The notes under the pieces are model-generated. The model had not been told where the DNA came from, did no database searches, and saw only the letters and a program-made list of their open reading frames with translations. Below are positions 8,373 to 63,701 of a stretch of 64,000 nucleotides of DNA, piece by piece. The translations under genes and the position numbers were made by a program. The DNA comes from Candidatus Lloydbacteria bacterium RIFCSPHIGHO2_02_FULL_50_18 (lineage in GTDB: Bacteria; Patescibacteriota; Minisyncoccia; Phycocordibacterales; UBA6899), in contig MHLM01000003.1 of the NCBI GenBank assembly GCA_001821395.1, positions 46,151-110,150 of the forward strand, in the 5' to 3' direction. Each line of letters starts with the position of its first letter. Positions within the stretch are counted from its first letter, which is position 1.

Positions 8373-8376
8373 AATA

Positions 8377-8492: not shown

Positions 8493-8583
8493 GCGATACG
8501 AAGTTCTGGACTGAAACGGTGCTTGAGATGCTGTACGAGTTGTACTGCCTCCAAACCCGCCAAAGGAAGAACTAGTAGTCCGC
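8493..8583. repeat. copy 1 of an imperfect direct repeat of about 90 bp (about 80% identity to 8723-8815)
   Basis: gcgatacgaagttctggac...ccaaacccgccaaaggaagaactag vs gcgatgtgaagtcctggac...ccaaacccgccgaaggaaggacgag. Confidence 0.8.
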
Positions 8584-8722
8584 AAAATTGAACACGCTAA
8601 AGAGTCTATTCAAATAGCCCCAGATGCGAGGCGCCTTGACAACGGTCCAACACCAGAAGAACGTTCAGATTTTTGATGAGATCTGATGTTGATTTTGTGC
8701 TAAGAGAGTTTCAGTTTCGGAT

Positions 8723-10816: not shown

Positions 10817-10912
10817 AGGAAAATGGGAATTAATGAGAGCAGTATAACATCGTTTGTCGTGAAAAACAGCTCACCGCATGCGCGGGCGTTATGCACCGCT
10901 GCTGTCGAGAAA

Positions 10913-10921
10913 CTTCTGGTA
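10913..10921 (+). promoter_or_regulatory. extended -10 (TGgTATAAT) giving a near-leaderless transcript for the OFOR operon
   Basis: tggtataat ends about 10 nt before the ATG at 10932. No SD. Confidence 0.4.
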
Positions 10922-10931
10922 TAATAATCCG

Positions 10932-12662
10932 ATGGAAACAGTAAAACAGAACATTCCGGTCTTTACGGTCGCCGTCGGAGGTGCCGCAGGGGACGGGATC
11001 AAAGAAGGGGGGCTGCATCTCGCCGAACTCGCACAGCGTCTCGGCTGTTTTGCATATCTTACTATGGAGTATCCGTCGCTTATCCGCGGCGGGCACAATT
11101 TTGGGCGGATGACGTACGGGGCGAGCGAGGTGCATGCCGACCATTCCGCGCTTGATGCGGTCATTGCGATGAATGCAGAGTCCGCACTTCTGCATCAGGA
11201 CGAACTGAAGGATGATGCCATTGTCTTTGTTGATACTCCTCATGCCGAGGCGTTGAAGGATATCGGACGGAAGGTGGTCGCAATACCCATGTCGCAGGCC
11301 GTGAAAGAGGTGGGTGCACCGCATGCTGCAGGCCCGTCGGTCGGAGTCGGCGCATATTGCTATCTTGCCGGACTTTCGCGCGAGAATGCCGAGGCACTAC
11401 TTGGAAAGATCTTTGGCGATATCCTGGGCGGTGTTGCGATGAACGTCGCACTTGCACTTCGAGGGTATGATGCCGCAAAAGAGTCGGGACTCACTCCGCG
11501 CACCGAACTCTACGTCGATGGCGCGTGTGCGCACACGGGAGTACTGCTTGAGGGGAACAAAGCGGTCGCTTTGGGATTTCTTTCCGCCGGACTCGAATTT
11601 TATATCGGATATCCGATGACGCCCGCATCGGGCATTCTGCATTTTCTTGCTAAGGAAGCGGTGGGCGGTGCGCTTACGGTGATCCACCCTGAGGATGAGA
11701 TCGCATCGATCAACATGGCGCTCGGCGTTGCGTATGCGGGAAAGCGCGTTGCGACCGGTACGGCAACCGGAGGGTTCGCGCTCATGCAGGAGGCATTTTC
11801 ATTCGCCGGCGTGAGCGAGCTTCCGCTCGCGGTTGCGGTATCGCAGCGACAAGGTCCTGCAACAGGGGCAGCTACGCGGACATCGCAGGGTGATCTACGT
11901 TTCGTCATCTCATCCGGTCATGGAGAATTTCCCCGCATGGTGATCGCTCCGGGCGATGCCGAGGAGGCATACACGGCCGGACGCATCGCACTCAACCTGG
12001 CGTGGAAGTTCCAAACTCCCGCGATCGTGCTGCTTGATAAACAACTTTCCGAAAGCTATCAGACGACAGTTGTCGATGGGGCGGCGAAACAGATCACCCC
12101 GCACAAAGCACAAGAAGAAGGTGACTACCAGCGATTCCGTTTTTCTCCCGACGGCGTATCACCACTCGCCTTTCCCGGCACTCCGAATACAAAAGTGAAG
12201 GCAACGAGCTATGAGCACGATGAATTCGGTATCGCGTCCGATAAGCCCGAAATGGTGCAGGCGATGCAGGAGAAACGCTGGAAAAAAATGGAAGGCATCC
12301 GTGCTGATGCACATAATTTTGAGACGGTAAAAGTGTATGGTGACCCTGCTGCAAAGAACGCCGTCATATTCTTTGGTTCGACCAAGGGCTCCGTTCTTGA
12401 GGCGGCAAAAATGATCGATACCCCGCTTCGGCTCGTACAGGTCCTCTGGATGGAGCCATTCCCCGAGGAGGAAGTTGCCAAAGCACTCGAGGGAGCCATA
12501 CGCATCATCGATGTTGAGGCAAATCACAATGCACAGTTCGCGGGACTCCTGCGTGAAAAGACCGGCATTGTCTGCCACGAGAAGATCCTCAAATTTGACG
12601 CACGGCCATTTGACCCGGCAGTACTCGCAGCAGAATTACGCAGTAAACTTTCATTATCATGA
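10932..12662 (+). CDS. 2-oxoacid:ferredoxin oxidoreductase alpha subunit (gamma-alpha fused), two-subunit OFOR type
   Basis: N-terminal POR gamma domain (GGAAGDGI...). Alpha domain motif GYPMTPASGILHF. The ORF begins at 10878 on the track, but METVKQ at 10932 follows the promoter. Confidence 0.85.
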   Translation: METVKQNIPVFTVAVGGAAGDGIKEGGLHLAELAQRLGCFAYLTMEYPSLIRGGHNFGRMTYGASEVHADHSALDAVIAMNAESALLHQDELKDDAIVFVDTPHAEALKDIGRKVVAIPMSQAVKEVGAPHAAGPSVGVGAYCYLAGLSRENAEALLGKIFGDILGGVAMNVALALRGYDAAKESGLTPRTELYVDGACAHTGVLLEGNKAVALGFLSAGLEFYIGYPMTPASGILHFLAKEAVGGALTVIHPEDEIASINMALGVAYAGKRVATGTATGGFALMQEAFSFAGVSELPLAVAVSQRQGPATGAATRTSQGDLRFVISSGHGEFPRMVIAPGDAEEAYTAGRIALNLAWKFQTPAIVLLDKQLSESYQTTVVDGAAKQITPHKAQEEGDYQRFRFSPDGVSPLAFPGTPNTKVKATSYEHDEFGIASDKPEMVQAMQEKRWKKMEGIRADAHNFETVKVYGDPAAKNAVIFFGSTKGSVLEAAKMIDTPLRLVQVLWMEPFPEEEVAKALEGAIRIIDVEANHNAQFAGLLREKTGIVCHEKILKFDARPFDPAVLAAELRSKLSLS

Positions 12663-13435
12663 GCCTACAACTTGGAACATACGCAAAGATCTCTTGGTGC
12701 CCCGGTTGTCCGAACAACCAGATCCTCGTCGCATTTCGTAAAGCAGTGACCGAACTCTGCGAATCGGGTGCACTCAAAGAGGAAAACATCGTCGCAGCGG
12801 CAGGTATCGGTTGCCATGCGAAGATCCTCGATTATCTCAATATGAATACGTTCAATGCGCTGCATGGTCGCGCGATCCCCGCCATTGAGGGGGTCAAGGC
12901 GGCGAACCCCGCGCTCACGGTGGTCGCATTTTCCGGTGACGGAGACTCATACTCGGAGGGGCTGACGCACCTCATTCATGCCGCACAGCGCAATAGCGAC
13001 ATCAACGTGTTCATTCATGACAATCAGATCTTCGCCCTCACGACCGGTCAAGCTACCGCTACTTCTCCAAAAGGTTTTAAGGGACTCACGCGTCCGTCCG
13101 GTTCGATCGAAGAGCCGATCGATCCATTGCGTATGATGATGAATGCCGGCGCGACATTTGTTGCGCGTACGTATGCGGGTGAATTTGAAAAGACGAAAGA
13201 GATTATGAAGGCGGCGATCGCACACAAGGGTATGTCATTCATCGACATCGCTCAGCCATGTATCACGTTCTTTGATACACGCGATTTCTATAAGGACAAC
13301 ATCACCTGGCTTCCGGAGGGTCACAATGTGACAGACCTCGATGCGGCCTATCACGCGACGAAACAATCTGACGGGAAAATTCCCATGGGTATCTTTTATC
13401 AGGTCGAGACCCCTACATTCGAGCAACAACTTTAA
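12659..13435 (+). CDS. 2-oxoacid:ferredoxin oxidoreductase beta subunit (TPP-binding)
   Basis: WCPGCP N-terminal motif, GDGD TPP-binding motif, four Cys for the [4Fe-4S] cluster. 4-bp overlap with the alpha subunit. Confidence 0.85.
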   Translation: MSLQLGTYAKISWCPGCPNNQILVAFRKAVTELCESGALKEENIVAAAGIGCHAKILDYLNMNTFNALHGRAIPAIEGVKAANPALTVVAFSGDGDSYSEGLTHLIHAAQRNSDINVFIHDNQIFALTTGQATATSPKGFKGLTRPSGSIEEPIDPLRMMMNAGATFVARTYAGEFEKTKEIMKAAIAHKGMSFIDIAQPCITFFDTRDFYKDNITWLPEGHNVTDLDAAYHATKQSDGKIPMGIFYQVETPTFEQQL

Positions 13436-13551: not shown

Positions 13552-15585
13552 ATGAATCTTGAAAAATTCTTTCATCCCGAGTCGGTCATGGTGATCGGGG
13601 CGCGTCCCGAGGAAGGACACGTGGGCTCCGCGATCATGAAGAATCTTCTCGCCGGAGCGAAGCGTACGCTCTACCCCGTCACTCCCGACTACAAGGAGGT
13701 GCTGGGTATTCCCGCATATGCCTCCATTGATGAAGTACCCGGAAGTCCCGACCTTGCCGTCATCGCGATACGCTCTGACCTAGTCCCGACCGCACTGCGC
13801 GCATGTGTCGCAAGGGGGGTGAAGGCGGCGGTCGTCATCTCTGCGGGCTTCAAGGAGGCCGGCGAGAAGGGGAAGCTGCTTGAAGAAGAATTGGTAGAGA
13901 TCGGTCGTGAGTCGGGCATTCCATTCCTCGGTCCCAATTGTCTCGGAGTGATCGACGGCAACACGGACCTCAATGCATCGTTCGCATTGCATAAGCCAAT
14001 GCCGGGAGCCATCGGTTTTGTCTCACAGTCCGGAGCTATCGGCACAGCATTCATCGAGTGGTCCCGCTCGGAGGGTGTTGGTATCTCAAAATTCATAAGT
14101 CTCGGGAATGAGGCGGGAGTATCAGAACTCGCGATGCTTGAGTACCTAGGGAATGATCCGGAAACGAAAGCTATTCTCGTCTATCTCGAGCACGTCTCCG
14201 ACGGTGCCCGCTTTCTTTCTGTCGCGAAAGAGATTATCAAAGAAAAGAAAAAGCCCATCGTACTCTTGCGGTCCGGCCGGTCCGCGCGCGGAGGCGCCGC
14301 CGTCATGAGCCACACCGGCTCGCTTGCTCCCGAAGACGCCATCTTCACCGCGGCCTGCAATCAGGCGGGTATCGCGACGGTGACGAACCTGCGTGATCTT
14401 TTTAACGCGTCGAAATTGCTCTCGCTCGGGACGAATTGGGGAGATAAGACGCATATTGCTATCGTGACGAACGGCGGCGGTCCGTCGGTGAACGCCGCAG
14501 ATCTCGTGGAACTTTCCGAATCGATGGAGCTCGTGCGATTCCCTGATGCGACGAAAGATGCGCTGCGCGGCGTGCTCCCATTCATGGCGGCCGTGGGAAA
14601 TCCGATCGATGTGATCGGGGACGCCGGAGCTGATCGCTATCGATCCGCACTGGATATCGTCGTTCAACAACATGATGTAGATGCGATCATCGTGATCGTC
14701 ACGCCGCAGATGATGACGGACGCTCGAGCTATCGCAGAAACGATCGTATCCTTCAAAGATATGAAACTGATCATGCCAGTCTTCATGGGAGGAGAGGTGA
14801 TGCGCGGCGGCATTGATGTGCTTCTTGCGAACGGGATGGTGAACTTTGACCTCCCGTCCGATGCTATTTTTGTACTGGATGCGCTTACTCCGAAGAAGAA
14901 GATCCCGCTTCCCGCAAAGATCCATGCGGCCTCGACCGCAAAGATGCTTTCTCACGAAGCGGCATCGGAGTTACTCAAGAAATATGACTGTGAAATATTC
15001 GGTGCTCTTGCGCACAAAAAAGAAGAAGCGGTACGTATCTTCGCCGAGCTTGGTGTAGAGCATGTTGCGATGAAGGTTGTTTCACAAAATGTCATACACA
15101 AGACCGAAGCCTCTGCAGTGCGACTCAACGTGGGAAGTGCTGACGTTCTCCGCACCTGGGACGAGATAGCGCTCGGAGTGAAGGCTATTGCGCCGGATGC
15201 GACGATCGAGGGGATGCTGCTGCAGCCGATGATCAAGGGAAAAGAAGTGATCATTGGCATGAAGCGCGATGCAACGTTCGGCCCCGTGATCGTTTTCGGT
15301 CTTGGTGGGATATTCGTTGAACTCCTAAGCGATGTGTCCATGCGCATCGCCCCGTTCGCCATCGAAGAGGCGAGAGGAATGATCGACGAGATTGCAGGTG
15401 TACGATATCTCGAAGGCTTCCGTGGATCCGAGCCCGTCGACAAGGAGGCGCTCGCGCAGTTGCTTGTTGCCATCGGTCGTCTCTCCGCTGAAAATCCCAT
15501 GATCACCGAGATCGATCTCAATCCCGTCATCGCAACAAAAAACCGGGCATACATTGTTGATGCTCGGCTGATGTCGGCACAGTGA
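13552..15585 (+). CDS. acetyl-CoA synthetase (ADP-forming), fused alpha-beta (NDP-forming acyl-CoA synthetase)
   Basis: 677 aa. CoA-binding N-terminus (VMVIGARPEEGHVG), succinyl-CoA-synthetase-like and ATP-grasp regions. Confidence 0.85.
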   Translation: MNLEKFFHPESVMVIGARPEEGHVGSAIMKNLLAGAKRTLYPVTPDYKEVLGIPAYASIDEVPGSPDLAVIAIRSDLVPTALRACVARGVKAAVVISAGFKEAGEKGKLLEEELVEIGRESGIPFLGPNCLGVIDGNTDLNASFALHKPMPGAIGFVSQSGAIGTAFIEWSRSEGVGISKFISLGNEAGVSELAMLEYLGNDPETKAILVYLEHVSDGARFLSVAKEIIKEKKKPIVLLRSGRSARGGAAVMSHTGSLAPEDAIFTAACNQAGIATVTNLRDLFNASKLLSLGTNWGDKTHIAIVTNGGGPSVNAADLVELSESMELVRFPDATKDALRGVLPFMAAVGNPIDVIGDAGADRYRSALDIVVQQHDVDAIIVIVTPQMMTDARAIAETIVSFKDMKLIMPVFMGGEVMRGGIDVLLANGMVNFDLPSDAIFVLDALTPKKKIPLPAKIHAASTAKMLSHEAASELLKKYDCEIFGALAHKKEEAVRIFAELGVEHVAMKVVSQNVIHKTEASAVRLNVGSADVLRTWDEIALGVKAIAPDATIEGMLLQPMIKGKEVIIGMKRDATFGPVIVFGLGGIFVELLSDVSMRIAPFAIEEARGMIDEIAGVRYLEGFRGSEPVDKEALAQLLVAIGRLSAENPMITEIDLNPVIATKNRAYIVDARLMSAQ

Positions 15586-21885: not shown

Positions 21886-23181
21886 ATGAGCGGTGCAATA
21901 ATAAAAAATATCGATGTGCTGGCTACGACACCGCTGCGCCGTGACGCGTTGTCTATTCTTGAGGCCGGTTATCAGGCTGTTCTGACCGAGCGCGTGGTGC
22001 GCGAGCAGGTGGAAATGAAGGGGAATGATATTTGTATCAAAGAGAATGCCATCTGCTTATCGGATTTCGACCGCATTTTTTTTGTCGGTATCGGAAAGTG
22101 CGCGGTTGACGCCGCGCTTGTGTTTGAGGATATTCTTGGTGATCACATCACCGACGGCATTGTGCTTGACGTGAAAGCGGGGAATTTTAAAAAGATCCGT
22201 TCCTTCATCGGAACGCACCCATTTCCTTCCGAATACAATGTTTCGGTGACGAAGAAGATCGTGCACATGCTTGAAAAAGCAACGGCCCGCGATCTCGTTC
22301 TCGTGGTGGTTTCCGGCGGAGGCTCCTCGCTGCTTTGCTTGCCTCATGAAATGCCGATCAGCAAGATCGAAGAGATCACCAAGGCGCTCTGGAAAGGCGG
22401 TGCGACGATCAGCGAGGTCAATACGGTGCGCAAGCATATTTCTGATATTGCCGGCGGGCAGCTCGCAAAGATACTCTATCCGGCGACCGTTGCCTCTTTT
22501 ATTTTTTCTGACGTCCCCGGCGACGACATGAGCGTAGTCGCGTCTGGTCCTACCGTGCGTGATGTCACCACCATCATGGACGCCGAGCATATCCTCGCAA
22601 AATATGACGTGCTCACTCACTGTCAATTTCCCAATTGCCAGCTTGTCGAGACGCCAAAAGATGAGAAATATTTTCAAAAGGTGACCAATGTCACTCTGGT
22701 GACCAACAAGACCGCACTTCTAGCGATGGAGGCACGCGCAAGAGCATTGGGCTATCAAGCCGAGATCCGCGATGCGGCGCTCGAGGGTATCGCCGCCGAT
22801 CTCGGTGCGGCGTTTGCCATCATGCCCATGCCACCCGCGTCTTGCTATCTCTATGGAGGAGAGACGACCGTTCATATTGCACACAACGCGGGAGAGGGTG
22901 GACGCAATCAGGAATTCGCATTAGGTGCAGTCTCCGTTATTCCTGACCACCGGGTTATTGTTGCGGCAGCGTCAGATGGATGGGATAATACTAGCGTCGC
23001 AGGGGCGATCGTGGACGCGGGAGATTGTAAGCGTGCAATGAATGCCGCGATCGACCCGAATACTTATCTTCGCGCAAATGATTCGTACCATTTTTGGAAG
23101 ACGAATGGCGGAGCGATCATCACTGGGCGAACCGGTATCAATGTAGCGGACTTTTATTTACTATTAAGCGAGAAAAAATGA
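21886..23181 (+). CDS. glycerate kinase, MOFRL family (glycerate 2-kinase-like)
   Basis: 431 aa. VVSGGGSSLL and VASGPT motifs. DUF4147/MOFRL architecture. Confidence 0.75.
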   Translation: MSGAIIKNIDVLATTPLRRDALSILEAGYQAVLTERVVREQVEMKGNDICIKENAICLSDFDRIFFVGIGKCAVDAALVFEDILGDHITDGIVLDVKAGNFKKIRSFIGTHPFPSEYNVSVTKKIVHMLEKATARDLVLVVVSGGGSSLLCLPHEMPISKIEEITKALWKGGATISEVNTVRKHISDIAGGQLAKILYPATVASFIFSDVPGDDMSVVASGPTVRDVTTIMDAEHILAKYDVLTHCQFPNCQLVETPKDEKYFQKVTNVTLVTNKTALLAMEARARALGYQAEIRDAALEGIAADLGAAFAIMPMPPASCYLYGGETTVHIAHNAGEGGRNQEFALGAVSVIPDHRVIVAAASDGWDNTSVAGAIVDAGDCKRAMNAAIDPNTYLRANDSYHFWKTNGGAIITGRTGINVADFYLLLSEKK

Positions 23182-23214
23182 CGCGGGTGAAGTATGGGCG
23201 TGTTGAATTATTAA

Positions 23215-25647
23215 GTGATTAATTTTAATGATGTGAATAAAACAGAGCAGACAATCTTATGGTTCGATCAGGTAGGGAATGACGATGTGCAGATCGTCGG
23301 CGGGAAGAACGCGTCACTTGGAGAGATGTATACCGCTCTTGCGAGTAAGGGTATTCGCGTCCCGAATGGGTTCGTTGTGACCGCGAAGGCATATCGGGAT
23401 TTCATTAATACGTCCGGACTTGTCGATATCATCAAAAAAGAGCTGACGGGTCTCGATACGACCAACATCAAGGCGCTGCAGAACGCCGGCAAGACGGTTC
23501 GCGCCGCATTTTTAAAGGTAGAATTTCCACAGACCTTGCGTGATGACATTACGAAGGCCTACGCAGAGATCTCGAAGTCCTATGGAGTGGAAGAGGCGGA
23601 TGTCGCAGTCCGCTCATCGGCGACCGCCGAGGACCTCCCCGGCGCATCATTCGCGGGTGAGCATGAGACCTATCTCAATGTGTACGGTGCCGAGCAGGTC
23701 ATCAAGAAGACCCGTGAGGCGATGGCATCACTGTTTAATGACCGCGCGATATCGTACCGAGTCGACAAAGGCTTCAGTCATTTTGACGTAGCGCTTTCTG
23801 TTGGTGTGCAAAAAATGGCTCGTTCAGACAAGGGTACTTCCGGCGTTATGTTCACCATTGATACGGAGACTGGTTTCCGTGACGTCATTGAGATCAATGC
23901 ATCGTACGGATTAGGCGAGATGGTCGTGCAGGGCAAGGTGACCCCGGACGAATTCATGCTCTTTAAGCCGACATTACGTGACGGCTTCAGGTCCATCGTC
24001 AAAAAATCACTTGGTGAGAAGAAGATGATGATGGTCTACACTGAGAAGCAGGATTCACCGGTCAAAGAGATCAGTGTCCCCGTTGCCGACCAGACAAGAT
24101 TTTCGCTCTCAGATGACGAGGTCATTGAGCTCGCACAGTGGGGAATGATCATTGAGGAGCATTACACCGCACGATTCGGCAAACCGACCCCGATGGACAT
24201 TGAATGGGCAAAGGATGGTGTGGACGGAAAGCTCTATATTGTGCAGGCACGTCCTGAGACGGTGCAGTCCGAGAAGAAGGGTTTCTCGATCACCGAATAT
24301 CTCTTGCAGAAGGGTGCACCGGAAGCATTGACGCACGGTATCTGTGTTGGAGGGAAGATCGCGACGGGGGTAGCGCGCGTCATTCTCTCAGCTTCGAAGC
24401 TTGAAGAATTCAAGAAGGGGGAGATCTTGATCACTGAAATGACCGACCCGGATTGGGAGCCGATCATGAAAATGGCATCCGCGATCATCACCGCAAAGGG
24501 TGGGCGTACGTCACATGCCGCGATTGTCTCCCGTGAGCTTGGAATCCCGGCCGTTATCGGTATCGGCATGGAGGAGATGGCAAAATTGAAGACCGGAATG
24601 GAGCTCACGGTGGATGCGTCATCAGGCTCAGTCGGCTATATCTACCCAGGCAAATTGAATTGGGAAGAGCGCGTTGAGGATCTCTCGCAGGTGCCGGAGA
24701 CAAAGACAAAGATCGCCATGAACGTCGGAAGTCCTGAGGCTGCATTCATGTATGCACATCTTCCCCACAAGGGCGTCGGATTGGCACGTGAGGAATTCAT
24801 CATCATGTCGCAGATCGGTATTCACCCAAAGGCACTCCTTGATTACGACAAGTTGGACAAGGATCTCAAGAAGAAGATCGACGCGCGCACGATAGGATTC
24901 CCCGATAAGGTAGAGTTCTACGTACAAAAACTCGCAGAAGGAATTGCGCAAATTGCCGCAGCGTCCTACCCGCATCAGGTCATTGTGCGCTTCTCAGACT
25001 TCAAGACCAACGAATACTGTACACTCCTCGGTGGCGAGGCATACGAGCCGAGCGAGGAGAACCCGATGCTCGGATGGCGTGGTGCGTCCCGATACTATGA
25101 TCCGAAATTCAAGGATGCGTTCAAACTCGAGTGTGATGCGATCTTGCGTGTGCGCAATACCTACGGACTCAAGAACCTCCACGTCATGGTACCGTTCTGC
25201 CGCACTCCGGAGGAAGGAAAGAAGGTACTCGCGACGATGGCGGAGTTTGGTTTGCGTAAGGATGAGGACGGATTGCATGTCTATGTGATGTGTGAGATCC
25301 CGTCAAATGTGCTTCGTGCCGATGAATTCCTTGATATTTTCGACGGTTTCTCGATCGGATCGAATGACCTCACTCAGTGTACCGTCGGATCCGACCGCGA
25401 TTCGGGTATCGTCGCAGGGATAACGAATGAGAAAGACCCGGCAGTAAAGCAATTGATCTCAATGGCGATCAAGTCATGTAAGGCGCGTGGAAAATACATC
25501 GGTATCTGCGGACAGGCACCATCCGACTTCCCGGACTTCCTGCGATTCCTTATTCAGGAGGGGATTGAAACTGTTTCGCTTAATCCCGATTCGATCATCC
25601 CGATGCTCTTTGAGGTCGCGGAAGAAGAGAAGCTACTTGGTCGATAA
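23215..25647 (+). CDS. ppsA: phosphoenolpyruvate synthase (pyruvate, water dikinase)
   Basis: 810 aa. N-terminal ATP-grasp region. Phosphohistidine domain GGRTSHAAIVSRELGIPAVIG. C-terminal PEP-utilising domain. Confidence 0.85.
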   Translation: MINFNDVNKTEQTILWFDQVGNDDVQIVGGKNASLGEMYTALASKGIRVPNGFVVTAKAYRDFINTSGLVDIIKKELTGLDTTNIKALQNAGKTVRAAFLKVEFPQTLRDDITKAYAEISKSYGVEEADVAVRSSATAEDLPGASFAGEHETYLNVYGAEQVIKKTREAMASLFNDRAISYRVDKGFSHFDVALSVGVQKMARSDKGTSGVMFTIDTETGFRDVIEINASYGLGEMVVQGKVTPDEFMLFKPTLRDGFRSIVKKSLGEKKMMMVYTEKQDSPVKEISVPVADQTRFSLSDDEVIELAQWGMIIEEHYTARFGKPTPMDIEWAKDGVDGKLYIVQARPETVQSEKKGFSITEYLLQKGAPEALTHGICVGGKIATGVARVILSASKLEEFKKGEILITEMTDPDWEPIMKMASAIITAKGGRTSHAAIVSRELGIPAVIGIGMEEMAKLKTGMELTVDASSGSVGYIYPGKLNWEERVEDLSQVPETKTKIAMNVGSPEAAFMYAHLPHKGVGLAREEFIIMSQIGIHPKALLDYDKLDKDLKKKIDARTIGFPDKVEFYVQKLAEGIAQIAAASYPHQVIVRFSDFKTNEYCTLLGGEAYEPSEENPMLGWRGASRYYDPKFKDAFKLECDAILRVRNTYGLKNLHVMVPFCRTPEEGKKVLATMAEFGLRKDEDGLHVYVMCEIPSNVLRADEFLDIFDGFSIGSNDLTQCTVGSDRDSGIVAGITNEKDPAVKQLISMAIKSCKARGKYIGICGQAPSDFPDFLRFLIQEGIETVSLNPDSIIPMLFEVAEEEKLLGR

Positions 25648-25653
25648 TTCATC

Positions 25654-26856
25654 ATGGCCACAATCACCGGAGTACATGCGGATGAGATCCGAGACTCGCG
25701 TGGAAATCCGACACTTGAAGTCACAATCACGACCGAGGAGTACTCTGCTCATGCGTCCGTTCCTTCGGGGAAAAGTTCCGGGACACGAGAGGCCTGTGAG
25801 TTGCGTGACGCAGACGGCGTCGGCGTGACCCGGGCAATAGCAAACGTGAACACGGTGATCCGCGATGCGTTATTGCACGTCACGATTGACTCGGCACAGA
25901 TCGATCGGCAATTGATCGCTCTTGACGGGACCAAGGATAAGCATCATCTTGGCGCCAATGCGATGCTCGGAGTTTCCATTGCGGTCATGCGTCTTGCTGC
26001 GAAAGAGAAGGCGATGCCGCTCTGGAAGTATATTGCGGAACTCGGGGGGTATACCCCGGGTTTTCCGCGTCTCTATATGAATATGCTGAATGGCGGTGCG
26101 CACTCCTCATTTCGGCTCCCGTTTCAGGAGTATATTGTTGCGGTTGGCGCGGCTGGTCCCCGGGAATCGTACGCGAAGGCGAATGCGATATTCGAGACCC
26201 TTGGCACATTGATCAGTGAACGCTATGGTGTTGTCCCAATGGGGGACGAGGGTGGGTATTCACCGGAAATGAACGGTATAGAAACACCTTTTGCACTCTT
26301 GAATGAGGCGATGGGGGCTGAAGCGATGGCATTTTTAGCCATTGATGCCGCCGCGTCGGAATTTTTCCACGATGGAAAATACGTGATCGAGGGCGCACCG
26401 CATAGTAGCGACGAGCTGTTCAAAATATATGAGGACCTGGTGAAGAAATTTCACCTGAAGAGCATTGAAGATCCGTTCGATGAAGTAGATTTTTCCACTT
26501 TTCATCGCATTACCACGGAACTCGGCACACGAGCGCTTATCGTGGGGGATGATCTGACCGTTACAAATCCCGAGATTACCAAAGAGATGATCGCGGAGCA
26601 TCGTGCGAACGGAATGATCATCAAACCTAATCAGGTGGGAACGCTCACGGAGGTGTTTGAAACAGTGCGTCTAGCAAAGGAAGCGGGATGGAAGCTTATA
26701 GCGAGCCATCGCTCCGGTGAGACTGAAGACACGTTCATTGCGGATCTCGCCGTGGGTATCGGTGCCTATGGTTTAAAGGCGGGTGCACCGACCCAAAAAG
26801 AACGCCGTGTAAAATACGAGCGTTTGATTGAAATAGAAAAAGAATTTACTCAATAG
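25654..26856 (+). CDS. eno: enolase
   Basis: N-terminal EIRDSRGNPTLEV and conserved enolase core; 400 aa. Confidence 0.9.
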   Translation: MATITGVHADEIRDSRGNPTLEVTITTEEYSAHASVPSGKSSGTREACELRDADGVGVTRAIANVNTVIRDALLHVTIDSAQIDRQLIALDGTKDKHHLGANAMLGVSIAVMRLAAKEKAMPLWKYIAELGGYTPGFPRLYMNMLNGGAHSSFRLPFQEYIVAVGAAGPRESYAKANAIFETLGTLISERYGVVPMGDEGGYSPEMNGIETPFALLNEAMGAEAMAFLAIDAAASEFFHDGKYVIEGAPHSSDELFKIYEDLVKKFHLKSIEDPFDEVDFSTFHRITTELGTRALIVGDDLTVTNPEITKEMIAEHRANGMIIKPNQVGTLTEVFETVRLAKEAGWKLIASHRSGETEDTFIADLAVGIGAYGLKAGAPTQKERRVKYERLIEIEKEFTQ

Positions 26857-26862
26857 TACTGA

Positions 26863-27882
26863 ATGTTCACTATGCGCATTGCTTATTTTTTCAACGAAGA
26901 GTGGGAAAGGGAATTTGTCGGTTCCCGACTTCCCGATCACACGTTTGATTTTTTTCAGGGAGCGGTGCGTGGAGAGGGCATTCCCGATCCGAGTGTCGAG
27001 GTGCTTTGCATCTTTGCGAATTCAAGGGTGGATAGTGCGGTGCTCGATCGGTTTCCCTCCGTTCGCATCGTGGCGACACGGTCGACCGGTTTCGATCATA
27101 TCGATCTTGAGGAGACGAATAAGCGTGGCATTGTTGTCGTCAATGTGCCCACTTATGGTGAGCATACGGTGGCGGAATTTGCTATGGCGCTCCTTCTTGC
27201 GCTCTCACGACGGATCTGCGATGCGCATCGCCGCGTCGAAACGACTGGTTCTTTTTCCCAGGAAGGATTGCGTGGTTTTGACCTGAAGGGGAAAACGATT
27301 GGTATTGTCGGTACGGGCCATATCGGGGCCCACATGATCCGTCTCGCACGTGGGTTCGATATGAATGTCGTTGCATATGATGCGTATCAAAAAGCTGACC
27401 TTGCGGCCGAGTTTGGTTTTCGTTACGTCTCGCTTGATGAACTGCTCGCATGTGCCGATATCATCTCTCTGCACGCTCCCTATAATGAGCAAACACACCA
27501 TTTGATCAACGCCGAAAACATTTCACGTATCAAGCGCGGAGCGTATCTTATCAACACTGCACGAGGCGGACTGGTCGATTCTATGGCGCTCGCAAAGGCG
27601 CTTGAGGCGGGCATCATCGCAGGGGCAGGGCTCGATGTGATCGAGGAAGAGGGGCACATGGAGGATGAGGTTGGACTTATTGTGATGGAGCATCCCAATG
27701 AGGCAAGACTTCGTGCACTATTGGCGAACCACTATTTTATCCGTCATCCGCGTGTCATCTTGACCGCTCATATCGCGTTCAATACGGAAGAGGCAATCGA
27801 ACGTATCCTTTCTACGACCGTCGAGAACATCAAGGACTTTGTTGGGGGTACGCCGAAAAATGTTGTCACGCATGCGCGTTAG
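26863..27882 (+). CDS. D-isomer-specific 2-hydroxyacid dehydrogenase (glycerate/hydroxypyruvate reductase or D-lactate dehydrogenase-like)
   Basis: NAD-binding GIVGTGHIGAHM. Catalytic R/E/H region typical of the family. Confidence 0.8.
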   Translation: MFTMRIAYFFNEEWEREFVGSRLPDHTFDFFQGAVRGEGIPDPSVEVLCIFANSRVDSAVLDRFPSVRIVATRSTGFDHIDLEETNKRGIVVVNVPTYGEHTVAEFAMALLLALSRRICDAHRRVETTGSFSQEGLRGFDLKGKTIGIVGTGHIGAHMIRLARGFDMNVVAYDAYQKADLAAEFGFRYVSLDELLACADIISLHAPYNEQTHHLINAENISRIKRGAYLINTARGGLVDSMALAKALEAGIIAGAGLDVIEEEGHMEDEVGLIVMEHPNEARLRALLANHYFIRHPRVILTAHIAFNTEEAIERILSTTVENIKDFVGGTPKNVVTHAR

Positions 27883-57063: not shown

Positions 57064-58806
57064 ATGGAATCAAGGCTGCGAGATCATATTAACAGTGTGC
57101 TCACTGAGCTTGGCATGACCGACGTCGCTTTTGCATTAGAGCGTCCGGCGGATCTTTTGCATGGCGATTGGGCGACGAACGCCGCCATGGCAGGGGCAAA
57201 GAAGGCGGGTAAGAGCCCGCGTTCGCTTGCTGAGGAAATAAAAGTAAAACTTGAAGCAATAAATGATGAAGACATTGTCGCGATCGAAATAGCCGGCCCC
57301 GGATTCATCAACGTTAGGCTTTCAAAAACATATTTTGTCCGTGAATTGGAGACGACACTCGCGACGGAGAAGTACGGCAACAACGAAACCCTAAAAGGCA
57401 AAAAAGTGATCGTCGAATACACCGACCCTAACCCCTTCAAGGAATTTCATATCGGTCACTTGATGAGCAATACCATCGGTGAATCTATTTCCCGCATCAT
57501 CGAGGCTAGTGGCGCAGACACAAAACGCGCCTGCTATCAGGGCGACGTAGGCTTGCATGTTGCGAAGGCTATTCGATGGGTGTTAGAGGAAGAGAATATG
57601 GCAGAAAAAATCAGAGATGCTGTCGGTGGAGAGCCCGCCGAAACACTTCATGATTGGGAGTACTTACTTCAAACAGGAAAGGCGTACGCAAGGGGGAGTT
57701 CGGCATACGAAAAAAGTGATGTTGTGAAAGCCCAGATTGTTGAAATAAACAAAAAGCTATATACGAGGTCAGACCCTAAAGTAAATAAAATTTATGATGA
57801 GGGGAGAAAATTAAGTCTCGAATATTTTGAAACAATCTACAAACGTCTCGGTACTAATCATGGCGATGGAAAAGCATTCAATTTTTATTTCTTCGAATCT
57901 GAGACTGGAGTATTCGGTAAAGAAGTTGTTGAAAAATATCCGGATATTTTTGAAAAAAGCGATGGAGCGATCGTCTATAGGGGGGATGAGGCAAAGGGTC
58001 TGCACACACGCGTCTTCATCAACAAAGAGGGGCTGCCTACGTATGAAGCAAAAGAGCTGGGCTTGGCAAAGATAAAGTACGATGCGTTTCCCTACGATGT
58101 TTCTATCGTTGTTACCGGTAATGAGGTTAATGATTATTTCAGGGTTCTGCTTGATGCAATGAGCAAGGTGTTTCCCGAGCTTGCTGCAAAAACAGAGCAT
58201 TATTCCCATGGCATGCTTCGACTTCCGACGGGGAAGATGTCCTCGCGTACGGGCGATGTCATCACCGCCGAGTCGCTCATTGAGGAGACGAAGGAAAAAG
58301 CGCGTGCAAAGGTCGCTGAGAGTACTTTTTCTGATGCAGAGCGGGATGAGGTGGCGGAGCGTGTCGCGATCGGTGCGATCAAGTATTCTATCCTCCGTCA
58401 GGCTGCGGGAAAAGACATTATATTTGATTTTGAACAATCCCTGTCATTCGAAGGAGATTCCGGACCTTACTTGCAATATACCTATGCTCGTACAAGGTCT
58501 CTGCTCGCGAAAGCGGGAGACAAAAAGTTGGATGTCGGCAGCATGGCAGGGGAGGATATTCCTTCGCTCCATAAGCATATGTTGCGTTTCCCTGAAGCGG
58601 TGCTTCGTGCGGAGGCGAGTCGCGAACCGCACCACATAGCGACCTATTTGATAGAGCTCGCGCGTGAATTCAATGCTTTCTATGCGAATAATCCGGTCAT
58701 CGGCAGCAGCGATGAGGGTTACAAACTCGCACTCGTACAAATGACCTCCCGCATCCTTCGGCGCGGACTTGATCTTTTGGGTATCACTGCACCAGAGCGA
58801 ATGTGA
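57064..58806 (+). CDS. argS: arginine--tRNA ligase
   Basis: N-terminal Arg-tRNA-binding domain. HIGH-like FHIGHLMS. C-terminal DALR anticodon-binding domain. Confidence 0.9.
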   Translation: MESRLRDHINSVLTELGMTDVAFALERPADLLHGDWATNAAMAGAKKAGKSPRSLAEEIKVKLEAINDEDIVAIEIAGPGFINVRLSKTYFVRELETTLATEKYGNNETLKGKKVIVEYTDPNPFKEFHIGHLMSNTIGESISRIIEASGADTKRACYQGDVGLHVAKAIRWVLEEENMAEKIRDAVGGEPAETLHDWEYLLQTGKAYARGSSAYEKSDVVKAQIVEINKKLYTRSDPKVNKIYDEGRKLSLEYFETIYKRLGTNHGDGKAFNFYFFESETGVFGKEVVEKYPDIFEKSDGAIVYRGDEAKGLHTRVFINKEGLPTYEAKELGLAKIKYDAFPYDVSIVVTGNEVNDYFRVLLDAMSKVFPELAAKTEHYSHGMLRLPTGKMSSRTGDVITAESLIEETKEKARAKVAESTFSDAERDEVAERVAIGAIKYSILRQAAGKDIIFDFEQSLSFEGDSGPYLQYTYARTRSLLAKAGDKKLDVGSMAGEDIPSLHKHMLRFPEAVLRAEASREPHHIATYLIELAREFNAFYANNPVIGSSDEGYKLALVQMTSRILRRGLDLLGITAPERM

Positions 58807-58875: not shown

Positions 58876-59652
58876 ATGAAAAAACTGATGTTGGGATTCG
58901 CCGGCGAAACGTCGAGCGGGAAGGGGACCGCCACTGATCTCGTGAAGGCATGGTATCCGGGCACGCCGTCATTCCGTTTCTCGGACTCCTTGCGTGATTT
59001 CTATAGACTGCTTCTGCAGAACTTTCCGCAGTTGCGCGAGCATAAGGTGCCGAGACTTTTTGAAGATCATGTGGCTGTCCGTTTGGTTGAAATACTGAAG
59101 CAGTCTTTTGGTTCCGATCTCGGTGCTACGGGGACTCGCTACGTTGCGTTTCATGAATTTGCCTACTGGCTCGTCGGACGGTTCATGCCGCTCCACTCCG
59201 GTTCTTGGCCGGAGACGGCGAGTACTGCCGACCTGCAGGGTATCTCAACAGCGGTCCGGAAATTTTTTGGAGAGGACACCCTTGAGCGCGCGATCATGTT
59301 TCGTGTCGCACAAAGCGGTATTGAACAGCCGTGTGTCATCATCGAAGGGATCCGTCGAATGGTCGACATCAGCACGCTCATGAATGATCCGAATGTACCG
59401 TTCCGCCTTACGTATGTCGAGGCCGAGCCTTCCATCCGCTTTGAACGGCACCAGTTACGGAATGAAAAGCCGGGTGATGACAAACTCTCGTTCGCGCAGT
59501 TCCTCGAACTGGGACAGGCCGAAGCGGAGGGAGAGATTCGCTCGTTGCGTCCGCACGCACATGCGATCATCCCGAACGATGGAACTCCAAAAAACTTTGA
59601 ACGCAGACTCAAGAAGGTCGTCATGAAGATGGTGGCAGAAATACTCCAATGA
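58876..59652 (+). CDS. P-loop NMP-kinase-like protein (paralog 2)
   Basis: Walker A LGFAGETSSGKGT, RFSDSLRD, IEGIRRMVD. Parallels paralog 1 (RFSSMLRD, IDGVRRLED). Confidence 0.5.
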   Translation: MKKLMLGFAGETSSGKGTATDLVKAWYPGTPSFRFSDSLRDFYRLLLQNFPQLREHKVPRLFEDHVAVRLVEILKQSFGSDLGATGTRYVAFHEFAYWLVGRFMPLHSGSWPETASTADLQGISTAVRKFFGEDTLERAIMFRVAQSGIEQPCVIIEGIRRMVDISTLMNDPNVPFRLTYVEAEPSIRFERHQLRNEKPGDDKLSFAQFLELGQAEAEGEIRSLRPHAHAIIPNDGTPKNFERRLKKVVMKMVAEILQ

Positions 59653-59685: not shown

Positions 59686-59745
59686 TTGAGATCAAGTGCG
59701 TACAATAACGCCAGAATGATGTTGTGTATTTGGAAAGGGAATCCC

Positions 59746-60075
59746 ATGAGTCTGAAGATCACTGCTGTCGCCGCGCACTATATTCTGGCGCGGGTCCGGA
59801 AAGATCAATTGCCGCTTCGTCTGAGCAGGAAAATAATGAACTGCTGCGGCAACATCTCTCCTCGCTTTGAACGGTCCGCACGGCAACTCCCCGGTGATAC
59901 TCTTGTAGAGGCATACGGATTGGCCCTCGTGTGCGACCTCACTCTCTACCCTGAATTCGCAGACGTCTCGGTCGATCTGTATCTCGGGAAAGAAGGTTTA
60001 TTTCTCTCTGAGAAAGTGGTGGTCATTCCGGATGGTGCACAGCTGTGCGGTTGCGGGGCAAGTATCGTGAAGTAA
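59746..60075 (+). CDS. hypothetical protein
   Basis: AAAGGGA SD before MSLKITAV. 110 aa. C-terminal CGCG. Confidence 0.4.
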   Translation: MSLKITAVAAHYILARVRKDQLPLRLSRKIMNCCGNISPRFERSARQLPGDTLVEAYGLALVCDLTLYPEFADVSVDLYLGKEGLFLSEKVVVIPDGAQLCGCGASIVK

Positions 60076-60173: not shown

Positions 60174-63100
60174 ATGGATGAAGAAGACAAAAAACGATCG
60201 ATCAATGAGCGGGAAGAGGCAGTGCTCGCATTTTGGAAAGAGCGAGATATTTTTGAAAAGTCGCTGCAGCAAAATGTGGGCAAAGACCCTTACGTTTTTT
60301 ATGACGGGCCCCCGTTCGCGACCGGACTTCCGCATTACGGGCATTTGCTCCAGAGTACGATCAAAGATCTCATTCCGCGTTATCAGACGATGCGTGGCCG
60401 CTACGTACGCCGAAAATGGGGCTGGGACTGCCATGGATTACCAATCGAGAATATCGTAGAAAAAGAGCTCGGCTTCAAGAGTAAAAAAGATATCGAAGAA
60501 TATGGCATCGAACAGTTCAATCAGATGGCGCGCGATAGTGTGCTCACCTATGACAAAGAGTGGAAAAGTGTCGTTCCGCGCATGGGGCGTTGGGTGGACA
60601 TGGAGCATGCCTACCGGACAATGGATGCATCCTACACAGAGAGTGTCTGGTGGGGGTTCAAGGCGCTGTACGACAAAAAGTTGATCTACGAGGGGTTCAA
60701 GTCGATGCATATCTGTCCGCGTTGTGAAACGACACTTGCTGTTTCGGAGGTTTCACAGGGGTACAAAGATATCAAGGACATTTCGGTCTATATAAAATTT
60801 GAACTCGTTGACGAACCGGGCACATTTCTCGTCGCGTGGACGACAACCCCATGGACTCTGCCGGGCAACGTCGCGGTTGCGGTCAATCCGGATATCACCT
60901 ATAGCAAGATCACTCATGAGGGATCAACTTATATCGTTGCAAAAGAACGATCGATAGAGGTAATGAAACGAGGTTTCGGAGAGCAATTTAGTTTTAACGG
61001 AGACGAGTTTAACACCATCGAAGGCAAAGAGCTCATCGGAAGATCCTACAAGCCGTTGTTTGATTATTATGTGAATGACGAGAAACTTGAGCATCGCGAA
61101 AATGCATGGAAGGTCGTCGGTGCCGACTTTGTAACAGTAGAGAGTGGGACGGGTATCGTGCATGAGGCTCCGGCATTTGGCGAGGAGGACATGGAGCTCG
61201 CAAAGAAATTGAAACTCCCGATGATCCAGCATGTCAGTATGGACGGCACGATGAAGCCGGAGGTAAGGGATTTTGCCGGCATGCATGTCAAACCCAAAAG
61301 TGACGACGATAAGGTCCGATTGAGTACCGACATCGCTGTGCTGAAGTATTTACAGGAGCATGGAACCTTTTTTGCGAAGGAGAACCTCACCCACTCATAT
61401 CCGCATTGCTGGCGCTGTGACACGCCGCTCTTGAATTACGCGGCATCCTCATGGTTCGTGAATGTGACCGCACTCAAACCGCGCTTGATTGAGGAGAACA
61501 AAGAGATCAATTGGATACCGGAAAATTTTCGTGATGGACGTTTCGGAAAATGGCTCGAGGGTGCACGCGATTGGGCGATATCACGCTCGCGGTTTTGGGG
61601 TGCACCGCTTCCTGTATGGAGATGCAATAAGTGCGGAAAGGTTGACGCGCTCGGGTCCCTCAATGAATTACGAGAGAAGATCGGAAGTTCCAATACCTAC
61701 ATGGTGATGCGCCACGGTGAGGCGGAATCGAATCTGAATAATATCGTGAGCTACAAACCGGAGGATGAGATCCATCTGACCGAGAAGGGCCGAGCTCAGG
61801 TGAAGGCGTCTGCCGTGAAGCTAAAGGAGAAAGGAATCGACCTCATCATTGTGTCGCCGGTACTCCGCACGAAAGAGACGGCGGATATCGTCGCGGATGT
61901 ACTTGGAATCGCGAAGAGTGAGATCGTTGTTGATTCGCGTATCACCGAAGTGAATACGGGTGATTTCAGCGGTTGTCCGATAGAGAATTATCGCGCCTAT
62001 TTTACTTCAACGCTTGAGAAATTCACCAAACCATGTCCGGGCGGAGAGACGCTTGAACAAATGCGTATGCGCATCGCGGCATTTCTTTACGATATCGAGG
62101 AGAAGTACCACGGCAGAAAGATACTCATTGTCACGCACGAATACGGTACGTGGATGATGGAGGCTGCGGCAAAAGGGGCAACGAATGAGGAGTCTGCTTT
62201 GATGCGTGAAGAGCAGGGAGAAGATTATATCGATTATGCCGAAGTGCACGTGCTCCCGTTCGTGAACATCCCACATAATCAACACTACGAGCTTGATTAT
62301 CATCGTCCGTATATCGACCGCGTGAATTATCACTGCTCCTGCGGTCTGGGTACAATGACGCGTATCCCCGAAGTCTTCGACTGCTGGTTCGAATCAGGCT
62401 CGATGCCCTATGCCCAGTTTCATTACCTGGGAGATGAAACAACGCCGGAAGGGAAGTTATTCGTGAAAAATTTTCCCGCGGATTTTATTTCCGAAGGTGC
62501 CGATCAAACACGCGGATGGTTTTACACAATGCTGATCCTATCGGTCGGACTTTTTGATCGTGCCGCGTTCAAGAGTGTCATCACGACCGGACTTGTTCTT
62601 GCGGAGGACGGGATGAAGATGTCAAAAAAGCTCAAGAACTATCCCGATCCGGTCGAGATGGCTGAGAAATACGGTGCCGACGCGGTACGTTTTTATATGC
62701 TCAATTCTCCTATTGTGCGCGGGGAAGAGCTTCGTTTTTCAGCGCTTGGTGTTGATGAAGTATTCAAGAAGATCACTATTCGTCTCGATAATGTCCGTTC
62801 ATTCCTTGAAATGTATGCAAAAGATGCGGTGATCGCTCGTGCTCAGCCGCGATCGAAGAATGTGCTCGACCGCTGGATCGTCGCACGCTGGTTTGAGATG
62901 CACGCTGAAGTGACGCATCATCTTGATACGCATGAGCTTGATAGAGCAACGCGTCCGATTATGCCGTTCCTTGATGACCTTTCAACGTGGTACCTGCGGC
63001 GTTCGAGGGACAGATTCAAGTCTGACGACATGGATGATCGCATTGCCGCAACGGAAACGACCGGCTGGATACTGCTTCAGTTCGCCCGCCTCATTGCACC

Positions 63101-63701
63101 CTTCATGCCGTTCATCGCCGAGGATCTTTATCAGCGTCTCGCCATTGAAGACAAGAAGGAGAGTGTGCACCTTGAGCATTGGCCGGATGTCGGTGTCGCA
63201 GCAAGCGGCATCCTGAGCGAAATGGAAGTCGTACGCAAAATGGTAGAGGTCGCCCTCGCGCTTCGCGCTGAATCGGGGATGAAAGTGCGTCAGCCACTCT
63301 CGGAACTCTCATACAACCTCGAAGACAAAAAAGTACTCAGCGATGAAATGCTCGGCATCATAGCAGATGAGGTGAATGTCAAACATGTCGTCTTTGACGA
63401 AGAGATACGTATCACGGCCGAGAACAATAGCGATCACAAGTTGAGCGATCATGCGGGGATGCTCGTTTCCCTCGACATTGCGCTTACTCCAGAACTGAAA
63501 GAAGAAGGACAACTCCGCGACCTCATCCGCACCATTCAGGACATGCGCAAGAAAGCAGGTCTCAATCCAAGTGATCGCATCACCGTGACTGCACCAAAGG
63601 ACCAAATCGTTCTCCTCGAAAAATACCGCACCGAAGCCTCTCCGATCATAGGTGCCGATAATTTTAGCGCTGGCATGGAACTCACCATCGCGAAGGTGTA
63701 G
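60174..63701 (+). CDS. ileS: isoleucine--tRNA ligase (type 2) with an inserted histidine-phosphatase (PGAM-like) domain
   Basis: HYGHLLQS (HIGH), WAISRSRFWGAPLP, KMSKKLKN. 1175 aa. About 209 aa (61704-62330) beginning MVMRHGEAESN and containing IVTHEYG lie between the zinc-knuckle halves WRCNKCG and YHCSCG. Confidence 0.9.
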   Translation: MDEEDKKRSINEREEAVLAFWKERDIFEKSLQQNVGKDPYVFYDGPPFATGLPHYGHLLQSTIKDLIPRYQTMRGRYVRRKWGWDCHGLPIENIVEKELGFKSKKDIEEYGIEQFNQMARDSVLTYDKEWKSVVPRMGRWVDMEHAYRTMDASYTESVWWGFKALYDKKLIYEGFKSMHICPRCETTLAVSEVSQGYKDIKDISVYIKFELVDEPGTFLVAWTTTPWTLPGNVAVAVNPDITYSKITHEGSTYIVAKERSIEVMKRGFGEQFSFNGDEFNTIEGKELIGRSYKPLFDYYVNDEKLEHRENAWKVVGADFVTVESGTGIVHEAPAFGEEDMELAKKLKLPMIQHVSMDGTMKPEVRDFAGMHVKPKSDDDKVRLSTDIAVLKYLQEHGTFFAKENLTHSYPHCWRCDTPLLNYAASSWFVNVTALKPRLIEENKEINWIPENFRDGRFGKWLEGARDWAISRSRFWGAPLPVWRCNKCGKVDALGSLNELREKIGSSNTYMVMRHGEAESNLNNIVSYKPEDEIHLTEKGRAQVKASAVKLKEKGIDLIIVSPVLRTKETADIVADVLGIAKSEIVVDSRITEVNTGDFSGCPIENYRAYFTSTLEKFTKPCPGGETLEQMRMRIAAFLYDIEEKYHGRKILIVTHEYGTWMMEAAAKGATNEESALMREEQGEDYIDYAEVHVLPFVNIPHNQHYELDYHRPYIDRVNYHCSCGLGTMTRIPEVFDCWFESGSMPYAQFHYLGDETTPEGKLFVKNFPADFISEGADQTRGWFYTMLILSVGLFDRAAFKSVITTGLVLAEDGMKMSKKLKNYPDPVEMAEKYGADAVRFYMLNSPIVRGEELRFSALGVDEVFKKITIRLDNVRSFLEMYAKDAVIARAQPRSKNVLDRWIVARWFEMHAEVTHHLDTHELDRATRPIMPFLDDLSTWYLRRSRDRFKSDDMDDRIAATETTGWILLQFARLIAPFMPFIAEDLYQRLAIEDKKESVHLEHWPDVGVAASGILSEMEVVRKMVEVALALRAESGMKVRQPLSELSYNLEDKKVLSDEMLGIIADEVNVKHVVFDEEIRITAENNSDHKLSDHAGMLVSLDIALTPELKEEGQLRDLIRTIQDMRKKAGLNPSDRITVTAPKDQIVLLEKYRTEASPIIGADNFSAGMELTIAKV

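Follow-up and report, generated by a model that had tools for sequence, protein, structure and literature searches.

The 64,000-nucleotide stretch of Candidatus Lloydbacteria bacterium RIFCSPHIGHO2_02_FULL_50_18 DNA analysed here (the window) encodes an isoleucyl-tRNA synthetase (IleRS) that carries a complete histidine phosphatase domain inside its catalytic body. The ileS gene (60174..63701, + strand, as are all features within it) is an uninterrupted open reading frame (ORF) of 1175 residues plus stop that specifies a type 2 IleRS. The inserted domain and its linkers cover approximately residues 503-705 (61680..62288), as delimited by alignment to the insert-free IleRS of a related locus (L004), and lie between the two cysteine pairs of the zinc knuckle in the CP3 subdomain. 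The architecture is real, ancient and widespread in the Paceibacteria/Parcubacteria. Judged from sequence comparison, the insert is probably active as a phosphatase, and its pairing with IleRS probably reflects selection; a probability of about 0.7 is assigned to this reading.

The core of the insert, residues 511-672 (61704-62189), matches Pfam His_Phos_1 (PF00300) with 104.5 bits versus 21.7 (E=7.4e-30) over profile positions 3-164 of 194, which bears out the earlier note on this DNA, where a histidine phosphatase fold had been proposed from the letters alone. The domain has the alpha/beta fold of the superfamily, and its AlphaFold2 (AF2) model, computed for the domain by itself, has a mean predicted local distance difference test score (pLDDT) of 95.6. 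Both catalytic motifs that had been read from the sequence are present: RHGEAESN at residues 513-520 (61710..61733), which includes R513, the nucleophile H514, G515 and N520, and THEYG at residues 654-658 (62133..62147), which includes the second catalytic histidine H655. R565 (61866-61868) and E592 (61947-61949) complete the catalytic set. In an alignment of 83 homologs (56-91% identity), R513, H514, G515, N520, S561, R565, E592, R633 and H655 are invariant, and the same nine residues are at least 95% conserved in 119 homologs. A sequence search of the PDB aligned the catalytic residues of the insert with the catalytic motifs of PspA. The ratio of nonsynonymous to synonymous substitutions (dN/dS) of the insert relative to the closest relative is 0.10 (Nei-Gojobori, dS=0.27). 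By the same measure, the editing domain is also at 0.10, the catalytic halves are at 0.02-0.07 and the C-terminus is at 0.19. The insert is under purifying selection.

The description of the domain as PGAM-like holds at the level of the superfamily and fails at the level of the subfamily, as every curated cut-off for dPGM, PspA, CobC and SixA was missed. Among the dPGM models (NF038349, TIGR01258 and related), the window protein scored below the cut-offs of dPGM_arch (77.4 vs 225 bits), GpmB (48.4 vs 261) and PRK01295 (45.4 vs 316), and likewise below those of PspA (66.7 vs 350) and CobC (65.2 vs 162.9). The closest stand-alone homolog, P0026, fell short with dPGM_arch (97.3 vs 225), pgm_1 (28.7 vs 81.7) and SixA (34.8 vs 74.5). 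The sequence thus points to a branch-1 histidine phosphatase of the ~200-residue capped PhoE/PspA/GpgP/CobC structural type that is predicted to be catalytically competent, and the profile scores identify it as an orphan subfamily of this capped small-molecule type, outside all curated subfamily models. The insert is just 19-25% identical to PspA (4ij5), GpgP (6s2q), PhoE (1h2e), a riboflavin-pathway HFP (9mmh) and CobC (6e4b). It differs from the capped branch-1 phosphatases also in having H-E-Y instead of H-G after the second catalytic histidine, and in being embedded in, or encoded beside, an IleRS.

The first cysteine pair of the zinc knuckle, C484-N-K-C487 (61623..61634), has an invariant C484 and a C487 that is at least 90% conserved in the 83 sequences, whereas both cysteines of the second pair, C721-S-C723 (62334..62342), are invariant. 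Alignment to the insert-free L004 enzyme confirmed that the insertion falls between the two pairs, where ~200 residues take the place of a ~20-residue linker. Two details of the earlier description needed correction: the second pair is CxC rather than CxxC, and the separation between the pairs is not ~209 residues, the spacing from C487 to C721 being 234 residues with an equivalent of ~45 in the L004 enzyme. The span of 61704-62330 given there for the insertion is essentially right, although its first position lies 8 codons within the insert and its end overshoots the insert by 14 codons, in conserved sequence of CP3 (DYHRPYIDRVNYH). Conserved segments flank the insert on either side in the 83 homologs, including PHNxxYELDxHRPYID after it, and the G+C content of the insert (0.49-0.53) equals that of its flanks. 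The AF2 pLDDT is 91-96 in each 10-residue block over the insert and linkers. The conservation of the linkers and the confidence with which they are modelled suggest that the attachment is rigid or fixed, not floppy. CP3 is the subdomain that follows CP2 and precedes the second half of the Rossmann fold; its topology varies among IleRSs, and in the Thermus thermophilus enzyme it has a zinc-binding motif (PMC7191050; PMC11685878). According to these descriptions, the subdomain whose tip bears the insert is peripheral, variable by nature and stabilised by zinc.

The synthetase that surrounds the domain is an intact type 2 IleRS, predicted to charge tRNA-Ile with isoleucine. The NCBIfam equivalog model for ileS (TIGR00392) matches at 868.3 bits against a cut-off of 621.4, in two stretches with the insert between them, and the Pfam tRNA-synt_1 match is similarly split into a piece at residues 17-521 and a later piece. 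The flanking IleRS motifs had been reported as undamaged, and this was found to be so. The HIGH-type signature is HYGH at residues 54-57 (60333..60344), with H54, G56 and H57 invariant in the 83 sequences. The CP1 editing domain extends over approximately residues 201-410 (60774..61403, boundaries approximate) and contains the threonine-rich motif TTTPWTLPGN at residues 223-232, where W222-T225, W227-L229 and G231-N232 are invariant in the same alignment. The KMSKS-type loop is KMSKK at residues 815-819 (62616..62630), with K815 and K818 invariant; the anticodon-binding domain, at residues 899-1043 (PF08264, E=1.3e-29), is followed by a C-terminal DUF5915 domain (residues 1050-1144; PF19302, E=8e-16), the two together covering 62868..63605. 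The full-length AF2 model has a pLDDT of 90.2 and a predicted template-modelling score (pTM) of 0.82. A Foldseek search of the PDB with this model gave Priestia megaterium IleRS2 (8c8v) as the top match (E=9e-85, 30% identity), and the top type 2 matches also include yeast IleRS and T. thermophilus IleRS (1ile; E=2e-67, 36% identity). The type 1 enzymes 8c9e and 1qu3 were clearly lower (E=1e-48 to 1e-54, 21% identity), and the assignment of the host as type 2 was thereby substantiated. The conclusion that the IleRS part is intact follows from the TIGR00392 score above cut-off, the conserved HYGH, KMSKK and threonine-rich motifs, the four conserved CP3 cysteines and the IleRS2 fold. Models of the mupirocin type stayed below cut-off for the window protein (MupB, 716 vs 1900; MupA, 688 vs 1900), and no second ileS was found among the window ORFs scanned, which are most of those in the 64 kb.

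The window protein shares with 8c8v and 1ile the fold and the order of Rossmann, CP core, CP1, CP2, CP3, anticodon-binding and C-terminal domains, as well as the HYGH and KMSKS-type motifs, and has in common with T. thermophilus IleRS a zinc-binding CP3 with the CxxC...CxC ligand set. Unlike the window protein, the IleRS chains matched in the PDB comprise 813-1061 residues and are too short for an extra CP3 domain.

The same architecture recurs throughout the relatives. PF00300 and IleRS domains occur together in all of the 120 best full-length homologs (54-91% identity, 1031-1250 residues). Similarity places the source of the window with Lloydbacteria-like members of this group, protein identity to JAYSTI010000055.1 being 80%. 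An exhaustive search with the insert and both junctions as the query yielded 191 clusters at 50% identity (E<=1e-30), the best 150 of which are IleRS-length proteins or fragments with the domain nearly always at residue ~450-530. At least 575 GTDB species-representative genomes contain a relative (one genome per species scanned), and the lineages among the matches listed include Lloyd-, Yonath-, Nomura-, Campbell-, Taylor- and Kaiserbacteria, Paceibacterota and Parcubacteria. One of these genomes is complete (CP011215.1). Many of the matching genomes (e.g., L016, L032 and L033) bear the title 'uncultured Candidatus Saccharibacteria bacterium' and come from one bulk submission; this label is probably a generic placeholder and not the true placement. 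From the GTDB scan, 80 genome loci were fetched, and these are the sample for all counts at insert-bearing loci given below. In 77 of them a single frame free of stops runs through the phosphatase and both IleRS halves; the remaining three are truncated or interrupted ORFs. Independent assemblies of close relatives (L001 and L002) keep the order argS, a 258-residue ORF, ileS with the insert and recO.

These results bear directly on whether the insertion is an artefact or a selfish element, that is, a chimeric assembly, two genes joined by frameshift read-through, an intein or another mobile insertion. All that was found on the side of such an explanation is a superficial likeness to an intein C-terminus ('PHN', residues 700-702). 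The only HN (residues 701-702) precedes Gln, not Cys, Ser or Thr, so that an intein was rejected, and no Pfam match to Hint, intein or homing-endonuclease domains was obtained in the window protein. Independent assemblies produced in many studies share the architecture, the insert does not differ in composition from its flanks, and selection acts to preserve it. The survey of relatives, in other words the 120 homologs and the species-representative genomes, was the test of mis-assembly, and the single reading frame in the 77 loci, together with the missing Hint match, agrees with the earlier view that neither a frameshift nor an intein is involved. Recurrence of the architecture refutes an artefact, the probability of which is negligible, and chance is excluded by the E-values and by the recurrence in hundreds of genomes.

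The insertion site accommodates more than one arrangement. Relatives P0320, P0360, P0363 and P0379 contain two to four tandem His_Phos_1 domains at the same CP3 site, and the Arg/His/Arg/Glu/His core set is kept in all complete tandem copies. The P0277 IleRS (1066 residues, probably cut at the contig end) has a His_Phos domain at residues 680-854 followed by a GNAT domain at residues 935-1063 in the CP3 region; an IS200-like Y1-transposase segment (residues 340-461) lies inside its CP1/editing region. In a Nomurabacteria locus (L063, MFUY01000016.1, 4101-8201), the phosphatase-bearing IleRS extends into a C-terminal HD domain (PF01966, 30 bits vs a cut-off of 22), and L060 encodes this HD protein separately, in an ORF (7922-8602) that overlaps the 3' end of ileS. 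An HD association was seen in just these 2 of 80 loci. CP3 in the Paceibacteria-type radiation is a hot spot for accreting enzymes.

A second line of evidence is provided by genomes in which the phosphatase is a gene of its own. P0026 comprises 189 residues, is 39-41% identical to the insert and alignable with it end to end, and shares with it clade-specific motifs such as HLTEKG, LRTKETA and H-E. In L004 it lies between argS and an insert-free ileS (977 residues), with gaps of 2 nt on the argS side and 3 nt on the ileS side. The P0026 family comprises 137 clusters (E<=1e-8) of ~189 residues each, and the named ones belong to Staskawiczbacteria or Minisyncoccales. All 6 sampled members, with identities as low as 44%, have an insert-free ileS (943-977 residues) directly downstream of the stand-alone gene, and the phosphatase-ileS gaps in these six loci are -10 to +24 nt, even where extra ORFs lie between the phosphatase and argS. 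A metagenome scan added 80 stand-alone loci, of which 75 were usable in that they had at least 400 nt of downstream sequence. ileS follows on the same strand within 150 nt in 56 of the 75 and is 0.36-2.8 kb away in 10 more, so that it lies within 2.8 kb in 66. Conversely, no separate phosphatase ORF was found within 6 kb in any of the 80 insert-bearing loci, and the fused and split arrangements never occur together in any sampled locus. No link to ileS exists for a stand-alone subfamily of greater distance (P0041-type, 38% identity). When two proteins are fused in some lineages and encoded side by side in a tight operon in others, this is a classic sign of a functional, often physical, partnership. 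Fusion and gene neighbourhood, taken as two independent signs, point to a partnership between IleRS and the phosphatase.

Based on these results, a lineage-wide bifunctional enzyme is proposed, in which a working type 2 IleRS would carry a competent phosphatase at the tip of the CP3 zinc knuckle. By analogy to the established mechanism of the superfamily, H514 would attack a phosphomonoester to give a phospho-histidine intermediate, with the phosphoryl group presumably held by R513, R565 and H655 and with E592 as the putative general acid/base. The pairing appears to be a selected partnership and not an accidental fusion, with the domain inserted in some Paceibacteria lineages and encoded by an orthologous upstream gene of ~189 residues in a sister set. 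The phosphatase most likely acts while held on IleRS, in cis when fused and probably as a complex when split. A small phosphorylated molecule would be the favoured substrate because of the capped architecture.

Several observations weigh against this proposal. The nearest structural relatives of the domain are ordinary metabolic phosphatases, so it could have an unrelated housekeeping job. Nine of the 75 stand-alone loci, mostly on short contigs, have no ileS in the available downstream sequence, and L097 has none in 4 kb downstream of its stand-alone phosphatase. A neighbour-joining tree of the domains separates the stand-alone from the inserted forms only partially: of the 23 stand-alone representatives, 17 make up a single pure clade and the six others, which are divergent, fall elsewhere. 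No number or direction of fusion or fission events is claimed from it. In addition, the neighbourhood evidence by itself is weak, as argS is as constantly adjacent as ileS (it is upstream in 55 of 56 stand-alone-phosphatase loci) and gene order is generally conserved.

A different history is one in which an ordinary metabolic phosphatase or mutase, such as phosphoglycerate mutase (PGM), phosphoserine phosphatase or a CobC-like enzyme, lay by chance in the argS-ileS operon and was taken up by a surface loop that tolerates insertions, without becoming mechanistically tied to the charging of isoleucine. Its structural neighbours are metabolic in nature, one source annotates a fragment (P0024) as COG0406/K15634 'probable phosphoglycerate mutase', the clade as a whole retains the order argS-ileS-recO so that adjacency may be frozen synteny, and CP3, being structurally variable and peripheral (PMC7191050), may tolerate insertions. 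The window moreover encodes enolase, glycerate kinase and an enzyme of the pyruvate, phosphate dikinase (PPDK)/phosphoenolpyruvate (PEP)-synthase type, with no independent PGM among the scanned ORFs. The case for an absorbed metabolic enzyme of this kind is weakened by the failure of all curated equivalog models (dPGM_arch, PspA, CobC and the other dPGM models). The ERHYG motif of dPGM is absent from the window domain, which has TEVNTG there. The host was IleRS in 6 of 6 Pfam-scanned members of the 150 best representatives and in 80 of 80 loci, and the others fit by placement and length. The phosphatase-ileS junction is tight although extra ORFs split the phosphatase from argS, the conserved and confidently modelled linkers suggest rigid docking, and two to four copies inside one IleRS would be odd for a stoichiometric metabolic enzyme. 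Such an origin without any link to charging is possible and is considered somewhat doubtful.

Other alternatives concern the substrate or the chemistry. The phosphatase might heal or regulate parts of the translation apparatus in cis, for example by taking a 2'/3'-terminal phosphate or pyrophosphate off tRNA-Ile or by reversing an inhibitory phosphorylation of IleRS. The exclusive tie to one synthetase, both as a fusion and as a neighbour, would suit such a macromolecular substrate, as would the HD phosphohydrolase domain on the L063 IleRS and its separate overlapping counterpart in L060. The HD domains found in CCA-adding enzymes and in small alarmone hydrolases have tRNA 3' ends as their targets, and SixA, PGAM5, Sts and TFIIIC tau55 are examples of protein-directed enzymes with a histidine phosphatase domain. 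The HD association is nonetheless rare, and a macromolecular substrate is regarded as improbable. A purely structural, tRNA-binding or metabolite-sensing (allosteric) module is less probable still. Domains inserted in synthetases often serve binding roles, and the clade has Glu in place of the usual Gly after the second catalytic histidine (H655-E656). Pseudo-enzymes normally lose their catalytic residues, however, whereas here the full catalytic set does not vary among hundreds of sequences and is kept in every complete tandem copy. A pyrophosphatase role was also considered and is disfavoured: all synthetases make pyrophosphate (PPi), and the window has the PPDK/PEP-synthase-type enzyme, which, if a true PPDK, would use PPi plus AMP.

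Among the readings that keep an active phosphatase in partnership with IleRS, the most far-reaching would make it a third catalytic site of the synthetase and part of translation, dedicated to the dephosphorylation of something that IleRS handles, in cis or as an operon partner. Candidate substrates are a damaged or toxin-modified 3' end of tRNA-Ile, a phosphorylated inhibitor or mimic of isoleucyl-AMP, and phospho-IleRS. This extension of the proposal is thought unlikely. If true, it would constitute a previously unrecognised step of repair, detoxification or regulation inside the synthetase of a large bacterial radiation, and the importance of the finding would rise sharply if the phosphatase took part in the reaction cycle of IleRS.

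Few enzymes have been studied as thoroughly as the aminoacyl-tRNA synthetases, and most of the add-on domains known in them serve to bind RNA or proteins or to edit mischarged products. For a synthetase to contain, within its catalytic body, a whole and conserved enzyme from an unrelated class is unusual, and the split-gene arrangement gives a second, independent line of evidence that the pairing is selected. No description of an IleRS with a CP3-inserted histidine phosphatase was found in the literature searched, which to that extent agrees with the view of the earlier note that this is not a known synthetase architecture; on the other hand, it has long been present, unremarked, in public databases under plain names. 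One public entry with this architecture, UniRef100_A0A1G2S940 from Yonathbacteria, is named 'Isoleucine--tRNA ligase', and NCBI entries are named 'class I tRNA ligase family protein'. Enzymatic additions to IleRS are not unprecedented, since NCBIfam has a curated family of IleRS with an added enzymatic domain, the N-acetyltransferase domain GNAT (NF040702, 'ileS_w_GNAT'). P0277 has both phosphatase and GNAT. A GNAT domain is missing from the window protein, whose NF040702 score is 310 bits (cut-off 1999). Known associations of histidine phosphatases with nucleic-acid machinery, namely the Rv2228c-type RNase H/acid phosphatase (NF005567) and TFIIIC tau55 (2yn0), are terminal fusions with no synthetase partner, in contrast to the loop insertion seen here, and scores against such fusion families are far below the cut-offs (82 vs 326).

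The system offers a testable handle on the poorly understood Patescibacteria, whose minimal genomes include many uncharacterised protein features. As a permissive site for one to four phosphatase domains, and even for GNAT, CP3 may interest enzyme engineers. The annotation of such proteins calls for caution, as the insert may be tallied as a phosphoglycerate mutase by KEGG-style pipelines and metabolic reconstructions may miscount accordingly. Mislabelling occurs also in the other direction: P0451 and P0479 are stand-alone phosphatases of ~190-200 residues that JGI labels 'isoleucyl-tRNA synthetase'.

The conserved upstream neighbour of ileS in the window is argS, encoding arginyl-tRNA synthetase (57064..58806, + strand), which was identified through Pfam domains on its orthologs in L001 and L002. 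An argS gene precedes ileS in 60 of the 80 insert-bearing loci. Two ORFs lie between argS and ileS. The first (58876-59652, + strand) encodes 258 residues with a P-loop-like N-terminus (GETSSGKGT), no Pfam match and a weak NCBIfam match to PRK08356 (38.7 bits vs a cut-off of 189); it was considered as a possible kinase partner and rejected as a general one, being present in 16 of 80 loci and having no Pfam match. The second (59686-60075, + strand) encodes 129 residues and is conserved in 6 of 80 related loci. A few kb upstream of the argS-phosphatase-ileS operon, L004 has a LAGLIDADG-like ORF with a faint Pfam match (559-1569) and L091 has a reverse-transcriptase (RVT_1) ORF (1664-2668).

Elsewhere in the window, no other His_Phos gene and no independent PGM were found among most of the other ORFs of the 64 kb, and ARAGORN detected no tRNA or tmRNA genes in its whole length. 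A cluster of genes of carbon metabolism at 21886-27882 (+ strand) encodes a glycerate kinase-like protein (DUF4147 and MOFRL), the PPDK/PEP-synthase-type enzyme (810 residues), enolase and a D-2-hydroxyacid dehydrogenase; these enzymes lead from glycerate to pyruvate without the phosphoglycerate mutase step. A NiFe-hydrogenase large-subunit-like ORF (8831-10123, - strand), subunits of pyruvate:ferredoxin oxidoreductase (10878-13435) and an ADP-forming acetyl-CoA synthetase-like ORF (13552-15585) are typical of the fermentative energy metabolism of the candidate phyla radiation (CPR). What looks like a defence island lies near the start of the window and consists of an AIPR (abortive-infection-type) protein (1590-2825, - strand), a D12-class adenine methyltransferase of 641 residues (3116-5041) and an AlwI-family restriction endonuclease (5062-6810).

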